Assembly (NCBI GenBank): GCA_963701095.1
Contig: OY969564.1
Coordinates: 2,528,001 to 2,592,000 of the forward strand
Direction: 5' to 3'
Length of the DNA stretch: 64,000 bases
DNA from: an uncultured Methanoregulaceae archaeon
Lineage (GTDB): Archaea > Halobacteriota > Methanomicrobia > Methanomicrobiales > Methanospirillaceae
Part shown: piece after piece, positions 42,001-45,000 of the stretch
How positions within the stretch are numbered: position 1 is the first letter of the stretch
Layout: every line of letters begins with the position of its first letter
Made by a program: the position numbers

Positions 42001-45000
42001 GTGAACATATTGTTGTATTCGGTTCGAACCGGATTTCTCAGCTTGCGAGCACTGTAAACGCTATGCTTATCTTTGTCGCGCCACTTTCGCTTGCTATGCT
42101 GCTTCTGGCATTTTTTCTCTCTCTTGCAGCGTATGTGCTGATGGTATAAGATCGGCCGTTATAGGGTTTTGTCGGCAGAACCCTAGATTTAAATGGTATA
42201 TATTAAAAGTCAAAATTCTGCAGGTTAAATATAGAGAATATGTTTACACTATTCTTCTCTATTTTTTTGTTTGCAAATCTCCCAAAATATTCGTCCTATT
42301 CATAATCTCTCACGATTTATCATCTTTTTTTCGAATCCGGGGCCGTTTGACCGCAAGATTTAAAGGAATGGCGTGCGTATCGTCGTTTATAGCATAGGAG
42401 GAAAAGGAGATCGGATCTTTGCAATAATCCTGTAAAGGCAGTTTGTACCGCAGGCGAACTTGGTTAGGTTAAGGTGATCAAAGTTCATCCATCCGAACAC
42501 GTACCTGCCCGCTGGATTGGTGTTGATCTCAACACTACCGGTCATGCGGCCGTTGCCGCCGAACCTGAAAGCGGGAAAGTCCTGAAACTGGGAAAAAATG
42601 TACACTATGTCCGCAGCAGCTCCATCAAAAACTGTACGAAACTCTACAAGGAAGGAAAACTCTGGAAATTAAAAAAAGATAAAAGCCGTGAACGTAAAGC
42701 GTTTAAAGCGGCACTGAACAAAATCTCCCGGCAAATCGTATCCTTCGCGGAATCGCTTGGCTCGGGTATCAAATTTGAAAAGCTCTTCTCCAGCCGTTAC
42801 TCGCATGCCCACGATGCTGCGGGTTTCATCGAGTTCTCGTTTGGGAACGGATCGTTTTTCTCGCTCCAGCGGCTGGTTGAGAAAATGGCTCTGCGGCGGG
42901 GAATCCCGGTTATATATGTAAACCCGGCATATACCTCAAAACGGTGCAGTCGGTGCGGGAATATCGGGCGGCGTAGCAGGAAACATTTCGAATGCCCGCA
43001 TTGCGGTTTTGTTGCGCATGCCGATATAAACGCCGCTTTCAACATTGCCCTTACAACCCACCGGTTTGCCTCTCTGAATCTTCGTGAGGAAGAACAGGCA
43101 GAACGGTGTCGGTTCTCAAAAAAGCAGATGCGCCGGCTTGCACGCGAAGAGATAGTCACCCCTTATTACAGTCATCCGGGAATCGCGGAACCTACCCCGT
43201 GCGGAAATCTGCTTGCAGTTCTTGAGTAATGGAAAGCACTAATTTTTCTGATAATATCTGGTTGTATAAAGATCTGCCAAGTGCACCATAAGCTTCGTAA
43301 CCCTAAAAGATCGAATCCGAATGCTTATCACATTCCTTCGGGCAAATATATCTCTGCGATCAGGTGTACACTGATTATTACCAAGGGGCTTTACTTCCAC
43401 CTGGTATGGCAAAGGTGATGGAGGCTATTGATATGTTGCCTGAAAAATCAATTGAAAGGATACTTTTCCTCCAGAGAAACGAAATCACAGAACACCATAT
43501 CTACCTCAAAATTGCACAGGTCACACCGGATTCTCACAATCACGAGATCCTGACGCGGATCGCCTCAGAAGAATTGCAGCATTATAACATCTGGAAAAAA
43601 TACACGGGCCGTGATATAACTCCGGCATTTATCCGGATCTGGTTCTATTATCTTATTGCCCGCTTTTTCGGGATGACTTTTGCGATTCAATTGATGGAGG
43701 GTGTTGAACAGAGGGCACAGGTCAACGATGGTGAACTTCTCTCTTCCGTACCTGAAATACCGACTATGCTTGTGAATGAAGCAAAGCATGAGCAGGAGCT
43801 TATTGCTCTTATTGATGAGGAACGGCTCAGGTATGTGGGATCCGTTGTGCTAGGTCTCAACGATGCTCTTGTAGAATTTACCGGTACTTTAGCCGGGTTG
43901 ACATTTGCGATCCAGAATTCCCGGATCATTGCAATGGCCGGTTTAATTACAGGTATTGCTGCTTCACTTTCTATGGCGGCTTCAGAATATCTTTCACAGC
44001 GATCTGATCAAACAAGTGGCATGAGCCCGAAAAAAGCCTCAATCTATACCGGGGCAACGTATATTGTAACTGTTGCGCTTTTGATTCTACCTTTCCTGAT
44101 ATTTTCCAACCCCTACTTTGCACTTATTTTTACTCTTGTCGGTGCAGTCCTCATAATTTTCGTTTTTACCTTCTACATATCCGTTGCAAAAGATCTGTCC
44201 TTCTGGACACGTTTTTTCGAAATGGCTGCAATCAGTCTAGGTATTGCGGCAATATCCTTTGTCATAGGACTTTTAATCCGACTGGTGTTGAACGTCAAAA
44301 TGTGAAAGGATCTGTAATTCTTCTTTTTTAACGCCAGTGTTGCCTCGCGTTAAACCTGAAACATTTTTCCTTGTTCTGGCGCCAGGTTGAGAAAGAGATG
44401 TGCTTTTTACCGATTACGACATTTATGAACATATCTGCCATCATTCCCCCGGTATTATCATGAAGTTTGCCCCCCCAAGAATTAAATTCACCATAAGGGT
44501 GAAGATTCTTATTCTCTTTCTTGTTTTGTCACTTGCAGCTCTCGCTGTAACCGGATATTTTGCATTTTCTTCGATCAACAATGTGGGAGACTATGCAAAG
44601 AATAGTAGCGAGGTTTTGGGTGAAGGGGTGGCCAACAACAGTTCTGTTACACTGCTTTTTCTCGGTGAATCATATCTCGTCCGCACCACTGCTGATCAGG
44701 CAAATTTAACAGACGCATTATTTCAGGATACCGACAGTGAAATAGAGATCCTGGCAGCGCAGACTGCCGAACTCCAGCGTAATCCTCCGGTGCAATCTTC
44801 TCTGCCAACGTATCCAGAAAGTAATCCTCCGGCTAATTCAAGTTCCGGAGCGGTACTTTTTTTTGCCCCGGGAGCGACAGCCACTCCGGGCTCTGAAGAG
44901 GCACGTACCCTTACCGGGCTCGCCGATAATCTCAAGGCTGTATATAATGCCGACACGGAAATGACTGGTGTCTACATAGCGACCGATTCCGGGATGCTCC

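Follow-up and report, generated by a model that had tools for sequence, protein, structure and literature searches.

The window, the whole stretch of 64,000 nucleotides of contig OY969564.1 that was analysed from an uncultured Methanoregulaceae archaeon, contains at 42474–43229 a gene whose sequence supports its reading as a TnpB nuclease lobe domesticated into a guide-less host gene. This reading is adopted because of the monophyly, synteny, and selection of the short forms, the missing TnpA, omegaRNA, and N-terminal half, and the replaced guide-contact residues. The encoded protein is probably a nuclease that works without a guide on single-stranded or structured nucleic acid. An earlier note had already proposed a domesticated, guide-less nuclease core, and that idea is kept; its scope was too narrow (four families, a duplicate locus, and losses now belong to it), and both an omegaRNA within the ORF and the RuvC-only TnpBs described in 2023 were overlooked.

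TnpB is the ancestor of Cas12. The well-studied TnpB domestications keep the guide and often drop cutting. The present clade would be their reverse, with living intermediates, and the loss of RNA guidance can be traced stepwise in it. It also allows direct tests of the bare TnpB/Cas12 nuclease lobe without the recognition lobe and of the way in which the gene of a structured RNA comes to code for protein.

Gene Anatomy and Structure Model

The ORF begins with a GTG start codon. An in-frame TAG lies at 42465–42467, two codons before it, so that no longer N-terminal form of the ORF is possible. Its parts are the following:

42474..43229, forward strand: short TnpB gene of 251 aa, with RuvC, TNB/zinc finger, and a 59-aa tail; WED/REC absent
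42525..42527, forward strand: RuvC-I catalytic Asp18, in 120/120 homologues
42594..42758, forward strand: basic RuvC helices alpha1/alpha2, residues 41–95 (16 K/R, 4 D/E), from structure model and sequence comparison
42777..42779, forward strand: RuvC-II catalytic Glu102, in 120/120 homologues
42780..42896, forward strand: remodelled lid and next helix, residues 103–141; lid Trp mostly lost, Y309/W313 equivalents K137/R141 replaced
42945..43004, forward strand: C4 zinc finger C158, C161, C174, C177 (PF07282), in 120/120 homologues
43023..43025, forward strand: RuvC-III catalytic Asp184, in an HAD-x-N motif of the 'derived' TnpB type
43050..43229, forward strand: C-terminal tail, the old omegaRNA and guide/flank region translated as protein; no RNA detectable here; dN/dS ~0.32

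Only 17 residues precede D18. The guided-TnpB profile NF040570 scores 102.3 bits against a cut-off of 100 and aligns only from model position 194 of 389, which bears out the claim that the ORF starts near RuvC-I and lacks the N-terminal part. The WED and REC domains that characterize a guided OMEGA TnpB are thus absent, and the Cas12f profile NF049972 gives 96.6 bits, far below its cut-off of 450. What defines the TnpB family is present, namely RuvC I, II, and III with the D-E-D residues and, between the second and the third motif, a C4 zinc finger, which was found as the PF07282 domain. Among the best 120 of 837 database homologues, gathered without a motif filter, D18, E102, D184, and C158/C161/C174/C177 are kept in every one, as the earlier note had stated for the catalytic residues and the zinc finger, and the Asp stands exactly at residue 18 in 91. 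Within the genus, the in-frame GTG is at the expected place in 36 of 36 loci, a count that is partly by design since the script looked for that GTG; the catalytic Asp is residue 18 in 35 of them.

A confident fold now supersedes the statement that there was no usable structure model. The AlphaFold model (146 sequences) has a pLDDT of 80.4, with low values in the lid and the tail and values below 50 for lid residues 111–122. The top structural match is 8dzj_A (Z 18.8, rmsd 2.8, 171 residues, chain range 219–412), followed by 8h1j_A (Z 14.5), and matches in the ESM Atlas are TnpB clusters only. The modelled protein is predicted to correspond only to the Cas12f/TnpB nuclease lobe (RuvC + TNB). 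The fold is like that of Cas12f and ISDra2 TnpB (8dzj, 8h1j), whereas the recognition lobe is absent and a guide RNA was not found for the gene of genome G000. The protein is very basic (pI 9.9), and its homodimer prediction scored 0.01 against a mark of 0.42.

Distribution, Origin, and Loss

A match was obtained in 36 of 61 genomes of the genus, including 21 of the 28 near-complete ones; 31 of these matches are intact and 5 are disrupted or truncated, the DNA having been inspected in all but G022 and G023. At E up to 1e-25, matches were obtained in 70 of the 251 genomes of the order. In the loci that were fetched, short forms are spread over 11 genera in the four families f1, f3, f4, and f5, so the restriction to Methanoregula has to be given up. 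The matches examined in f6 are full-length, and the single match in f2, a fragment, is outside the examined set. The names in the database entries are Methanoregula, Methanovulcanius yangii, and Methanoculleus records.

The short forms make up one clade beside the full-length methanogen TnpBs in three trees (SH-aLRT 96, 98, and 100), which are quick trees without bootstrap and with several near-duplicate, broken, and misparsed rows omitted. Judged by these trees, they derive once from an IS605 TnpB. The IS605 'derived' TnpBs of methanogens (L088–L090, L145, L156) appear as the direct source, with 43–60% core identity, the same RuvC motifs, and the same omegaRNA family. They differ in being ~346 aa long with WED/REC, in often having TnpA upstream, in being multi-copy (four in G098), and in carrying a variable guide after the scaffold.

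Two neighbours of the gene lie in the window:

40413..42149, forward strand: DUF2070 membrane protein, upstream neighbour in 34/40 main-clade loci
43364..44305, forward strand: VIT1-family protein, downstream neighbour in 9/40 main-clade loci

In 19 of the 40 main-clade Methanoregula loci an ion-channel-domain gene is found downstream instead, and at least one of the DUF2070, channel-domain, and VIT1 neighbours accompanies the gene in 38 of 40. In family f5, too, the gene is followed by a channel-domain homologue (48% over 187 aa), in the opposite orientation. There is, in addition, a nested second clade of 11 loci near PHP/PhoU genes. Six Methanoregula genomes hold two copies (G009, G015, G025, G028, G037, and G134), and five genomes match with the second-clade copy only. 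The description as a single-copy gene is therefore right for G000, which holds one, and wrong for those six genomes; the idea of one locus is no longer tenable.

A PHP phosphoesterase gene precedes the second-clade copy in 7 of the 11 loci and shows a weak likeness, below cut-offs, to nucleotide phosphatases and to RNase RNM. One PHP–TnpB fusion (P0291) comes from a single sequence, on one contig of 2.2 kb, and could be artefactual. This PHP context (7/11 loci and the fusion) is the only functional hint from the neighbourhood. No single neighbour recurs in every lineage, and genes for membrane or signalling proteins make up most of the neighbours.

The gene was not matched in the near-complete genomes G036, G056, G048, and G010. 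A remnant persists in G233, the gap in G048 is clean, and disrupted copies are present in G014, G027, G009, G139, and G277. Because of the duplicate locus and the common losses, the sequences point to an old, dispensable host gene that is frequently lost rather than to one fixed at a single locus.

Upstream Region and Expression

Three conserved elements precede the start codon:

42350..42364, forward strand: BRE/TATA-like archaeal promoter box, 124 nt upstream of the start; in 22/29 main-locus copies and 0/7 second-clade copies
42396..42401, forward strand: conserved Shine-Dalgarno-like hexamer, ~75 nt before the start, without a start codon behind it
42445..42459, forward strand: conserved 15-bp non-coding, partly palindromic element of the presumed 5' leader, a candidate operator

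The BRE/TATA-like box lies 116–127 nt upstream in the 22 of 29 main-locus copies that have it, in agreement with the earlier claim that the gene has its own promoter. A sigma-70 promoter scan was set aside as unsuited to an archaeon. The ribosome-binding site that had also been claimed is reduced to a weak AGG before the start, and the stretch that best matches the 16S 3' end overlaps the GTG. An upstream ORF or frameshifted leader was rejected: the spacing from the conserved motif to the GTG changes by non-multiples of 3 among orthologues. That out-of-frame spacing upholds the view of the upstream stretch as non-coding.

The 15-bp element is self-complementary at 7.1 of 15 positions, compared with 3.5 in column shuffles, 1.1% of which reach 7.1, and it is a possible operator. 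A regulon was not found in G000, where the top matrix matches of the element are depleted between genes (7 and 10 of 150; 19 expected). A stable leader RNA fold was not found either, since six of six folds gave z-scores from −0.36 to +1.56. RNA contigs of relatives (four runs from three studies) cover the ORF and extend up to 42400–42422; the runs were picked for containing the ORF, and their contigs reveal neither strand, start, nor level, so they give a weak hint of its transcription. The word share was small in all twelve candidate RNA runs.

Selection and Immobility

Purifying selection, which had been proposed for the gene, is confirmed. The core (residues 2–192) has a median dN/dS of 0.10 (range 0.03–0.16; 27 pairs), and the tail has a median of 0.32 (range 0.21–0.48; 20 unsaturated pairs); every pair includes G000, and the values are thus not independent. 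Synonymous sites are near saturation, with dS up to 2.3.

The absence of an adjoining transposase has also been corroborated. A Y1 transposase (PF01797) was not found in G000, whose genome is 86% complete, and TnpA lies within 1.5 kb at 0 of 85 short-form loci versus 6 of 7 full-length loci, many of the available flanks being 1.5 kb or shorter. The right-end hairpin typical of IS605/IS1341 was not found after the gene. TnpA, end hairpin, and multiple copies at unrelated sites, the marks of an IS605/IS1341 mobile element, are thus all absent in G000. A repeat array of the CRISPR kind that would adjoin a type V (Cas12f) effector was not found within 42100–43500 for repeats sought up to 60 nt apart. 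A split gene was rejected, as a separate N-terminal half is absent from G000 by tblastn and by a profile of 61 N-terminal halves; the profile finds nothing there at E up to 10 and detects 7 full-length control loci. A one-query search, run without a positive control, likewise did not find the half in five of five genomes.

That the gene is a decaying transposon relic without a host role is very improbable. Several copies are indeed broken or lost, but dN/dS is ~0.1 at dS up to 2.3, the new start and promoter are conserved, some residues have become newly invariant, and at least one common neighbour stays in place in 38/40 main-clade loci. Another explanation is a conditionally toxic or anti-virus nuclease of the abortive or addiction type, silenced by a repressor on the 15-bp element. 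The patchy presence with repeated loss, the one duplication, and the operator-like leader element would agree with it, and a toxin role was proposed for another active archaeal TnpB clade by Altae-Tran et al. (2023; PMC10691335). Such a role is quite unlikely, however, given the strongly purifying selection and the stable loci among housekeeping-type genes, beside which a recurring small antitoxin-like gene was not found.

Fate of the omegaRNA

Full-length relatives carry a conserved ~120-nt scaffold that overlaps the ORF end and is followed by a variable guide. An omegaRNA covariance model made from 18 copies outside the short clade, with double changes in 17 of 30 pairs, detects the scaffold in all 18 full-length loci and in none of the 60 short metagenome loci, with two loci unclassified. 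No omegaRNA was found at the 42474–43229 gene, where the best score was 4.1 bits with filters off, or elsewhere in G000 or in G020 (150/585 and 150/508 candidates scored), and Rfam gave no match in five loci. The omegaRNA that belongs to an OMEGA TnpB is therefore lacking for the 251-aa gene and is present at 4 of 68 short-form genome loci, in G086, G166, G220, and G277 (118–121 nt, 50–63 bits), the last of which is a broken copy. The named records L224 and L225 also match the model; they are not extra cases because their proteins match ones already counted. The earlier statement that there is no conserved 3' RNA is accurate for Methanoregula and misses the family's omegaRNA, which lies within the ORF rather than behind the stop and is kept at these four loci. 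Since four genomes keep the omegaRNA, 'guide-less' may not hold for the clade as a whole.

At the four retained loci the scaffold is translated in frame. Pairing is seen in 92% of the pair cells, with one pair changed on both sides, and reaches 98% in stem 1 and 100% in the six-pair helix that closes on the scaffold 3' end; these values come from only four related sequences, in an alignment that follows the model. Between G220 and G166, synonymous sites are conserved at 13 of 14 positions in the scaffold 5' half versus 79 of 134 in the core (Fisher p 0.018); the difference was not significant in the other two pairs of RNA-keeping forms (p 0.14 and 0.39). At the guide position, the same two sequences differ mainly at third codon positions, as a protein-coding stretch would. 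A target for the retained guide position was rejected in the four genomes, where one match had 2 mismatches and the rest had 3, plus two self matches.

The short TnpB could be read as still RNA-guided, either by an omegaRNA and a WED/REC-like partner supplied in trans or by the retained omegaRNA guiding TAM-free single-strand cutting. The complete scaffold of 118–121 nt (50–63 bits) at four short-form loci and the synonymous conservation in the G220–G166 pair speak for continued guidance. Yet that conservation is not significant in the other two pairs, the guide position varies like protein and has no convincing target in the four genomes, neither an omegaRNA (150/585 and 150/508 candidates scored in G000 and G020) nor an N-terminal half (G000) was found, and the stacking Tyr discussed below is gone even from the three intact RNA-keeping forms. 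Continued guidance is therefore considered improbable.

A different alternative is a non-cutting regulator that binds nucleic acid. Its RuvC fold would hold DNA or a structured RNA, at first the mRNA of the gene itself with the omegaRNA in it, and the triad would serve only to hold metal. The RuvC helices to which stem 1 of the omegaRNA binds in ISDra2 (PMC10097598) are kept and basic here. Stem 1 and the scaffold-closing helix remain paired at the four loci with one double change, and the leader has conserved non-coding elements. Against this, the three catalytic residues are invariant, whereas TnpB-derived regulators are described as nuclease-dead (PMC10705468), and the Methanoregula tail shows no synonymous-site constraint; a regulator of this kind is unlikely.

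In the retained loci, the sequence just 3' of the scaffold, formerly guide and flank, codes for a motif that aligns with the last Methanoregula residues. This likeness and the tail in which synonymous-site constraint was not found together lead to the conclusion that the tail is the omegaRNA region converted to protein.

Residues That Once Touched the Guide–Target Duplex

In ISDra2 TnpB, WED/REC read the TAM, and Y309 and W313 stack on the first guide–target pair (PMC10097598). The ISDra2 residues were placed on the short forms through a bridging alignment. The Y309 position is Tyr in 13/13 full-length proteins versus 0/119 short cores, and the W313 position is Leu in 13/13 and 1/119, respectively. 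The stacking Tyr is absent even from the three intact RNA-keeping forms. H262 is retained in these three and in 46 of 95 Methanoregulaceae-type forms, and the Methanoregulaceae-type forms have gained near-invariant C54, T55, K56, W64, F105, F123, and N125. Core identity to full-length relatives is 55–60% for the RNA-keeping forms versus 41–52% for the other short forms, and by this measure the RNA-keeping forms are the closest to the ancestor. The pattern fits an order in which targeting was lost first and the loss of the RNA and the remodelling of the surface came later. Alternatively, omegaRNA retention could be due to slower overall change in those lineages.

Proposed Mechanism

From the established anatomy, origin, and selection of the gene and its loss of RNA and guide-contact residues, we infer activity, substrate, and role as follows. 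In an ancestor within Methanomicrobiales, a 'derived'-type IS605 TnpB would have lost the WED/REC lobe at its N-terminus in a single event, acquired a new start 17 codons before RuvC-I together with its own promoter, and then been inherited as a dispensable host gene. The short form would be unable to recognize a TAM, to open double-stranded DNA, or to keep hold of a guide–target duplex. The RuvC helices alpha1/alpha2 and the zinc finger may grip nucleic acid, and D18/E102/D184 would cut it guide-free and metal-dependently. The likeliest substrate would be single-stranded or structured nucleic acid, with RNA and ssDNA/flap DNA about equally likely, and the role would lie in turnover, salvage, or repair. 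As a second step the omegaRNA would have been lost, persisting within the ORF in a few lineages that change slowly and becoming the protein tail in the others.

For TnpB and Cas12, it is the forming of an R-loop that normally opens the RuvC site. The lid, modelled with low confidence, may keep the active site shut in the short form. Apo TnpB cuts its own RNA with RuvC (PMC10278001), so guide-free activity already exists in the parent family.

A further, more elaborate reading can be put forward only tentatively, as a two-step exit from RNA guidance. First, a RuvC-only ribonucleoprotein would have bound, and perhaps processed, the omegaRNA in its own mRNA without DNA targeting, a state that would survive in two genera including one named cultured species. 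Then an RNA-free enzyme would have followed, whose new basic C-terminal helices, built from omegaRNA sequence, may fill the place of the RNA. If true, a TnpB de-programmed by nature would have taken up a new role in RNA processing in methanogens.

Relation to Known Systems

RuvC-only, non-mobile TnpBs have been known as a kind since 2023. Altae-Tran et al. (PMC10691335) describe non-mobile ~220-aa RuvC-only TnpBs in Halobacteria (e.g., WP_004214924.1) with an apparently active site and guide binding judged unlikely. The Methanomicrobiales gene shares these features, being archaeal, non-mobile, and RuvC alone with an intact triad. It belongs to another order, and its clade has an RNA-derived tail and omegaRNA-keeping members that set it apart from the halobacterial proteins as described. 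The short halobacterial-type candidates L344 and L347–L349 branch with other TnpBs, far from the clade; an AU test did not reject joining L344, a putative member of the published branch, to it (p 0.16). New here are the in-ORF omegaRNA in four genomes, the RNA-derived tail, and the lost stacking Tyr. A report on the Methanomicrobiales clade was not found in the literature search, and the additional data files of PMC10691335 may list it; five methanogen names and WP_004214924 had no match in its supplementary file. Named cultured species hold both states of the omegaRNA and thus offer a tractable model for RuvC-only TnpBs, whose function was left open in that work.

The Sulfolobaceae GATase-TnpB (~280 aa), for which PMC10691335 reports a kept wedge domain, a linked GATase gene, and a proposed, possibly RNA-free action, is likewise a small, immobile, catalytically intact archaeal TnpB. 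The short form differs in being also without the wedge and in having DUF2070/VIT1 neighbours and no universal one. TldRs are TnpB-like nuclease-dead repressors (PMC10705468) and resemble the present gene as domesticated TnpBs fixed as host genes. They keep guide and targeting and lose catalysis, whereas the short form keeps the catalytic residues and loses targeting; the inactivated RuvC that marks a TldR is not seen here, where the triad is invariant.

The Holliday-junction resolvase RuvC (4ld0) is also an RNase H-like nuclease that stands alone and has a similar plan (Z 10.3), from a different family. A function of the short form as a stand-in for a missing resolvase was rejected, as ruvC is present in five of five genomes (G000 and 4/4 relatives tested); Hjc was not found in G000. 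The E-K-L motif that resembles resolvase RuvC was rejected as a special trait, being already present in full-length relatives. The labels 'transposase' and 'RNA-guided endonuclease' that genes in these genomes bear are probably wrong on both counts.

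Leader and Start of the Short TnpB Gene

The leader of the short TnpB gene (window 42474-43229, + strand) carries two conserved non-coding motifs, which are located at window positions 42396-42401 and 42445-42459. The second of these, 15 bp in length, is partly palindromic and may be a remnant of the coding sequence for the last WED strand. Sequences resembling it are also found upstream in G220 and G086, two short-form genomes that keep the omegaRNA inside the 3' end of the ORF. Within the gene itself, synonymous-site conservation is higher in the first 20 codons (window 42474-42533; 0.76) than in the remaining part (0.44-0.69).

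Neighbours of Short Forms in Other Lineages

Copies of the second clade, a nested group of short forms, are immediately preceded by a PHP phosphoesterase gene at L033, L034, L038, L039, L044, L112, and L115. The two genes overlap by 4 nt in two of the copies, and there is one PHP-TnpB fusion protein (P0291), which may be artefactual. At the loci of family f5 (L093-L108), the short gene is preceded by a HAD hydrolase gene and, at L093, also by a gene for an APH-like phosphotransferase. At the loci from genus g18, the tail of the short gene is mostly gone, and open frames are as short as 199 aa.

Other TnpB-Like Genes and OmegaRNA Families

The genome that holds the window (G000) has a second TnpB, which belongs to the typical clade, is unrelated to the short gene and lies outside the window (L002, 1453-2259). 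Its open frame has no start and one zinc-finger Cys is substituted; it is probably a broken element. Short divergent TnpB-like ORFs with open frames of 225-289 aa occur in the genomes G520 and G355 (L344 and L347-L349), and three of them, of 287-289 aa, cluster as a tight group that could be another domesticated lineage.

An omegaRNA family of ~119 nt with strong covariation was found at L118-L137 (model R1), and the loci tested gave no match in Rfam. Several of the R1 copies lack a recognisable tnpB ORF at their locus (L121, L126, L128, L130, L131, and L133-L137) and in this resemble non-autonomous elements or guides that stand alone. TnpBs of the Methanosarcina type (L144, L148, L228, L235, L258, P0139, and P0140) are 450-600 aa in length and contain long low-complexity insertions, and their omegaRNA is a longer variant of 135 nt.

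Possible Frameshifts Elsewhere in the Window

At window 34246-35111, a kinase-like gene, which we take to be similar to pantoate kinase, shows up as two successive ORFs of 144 and 134 aa, which may reflect a frameshift. The single 292-aa ORF at window 38104-38982 seemingly joins an unknown N-terminal part to a second part that presumably resembles a nitroreductase, and it may represent two genes merged by a frameshift.
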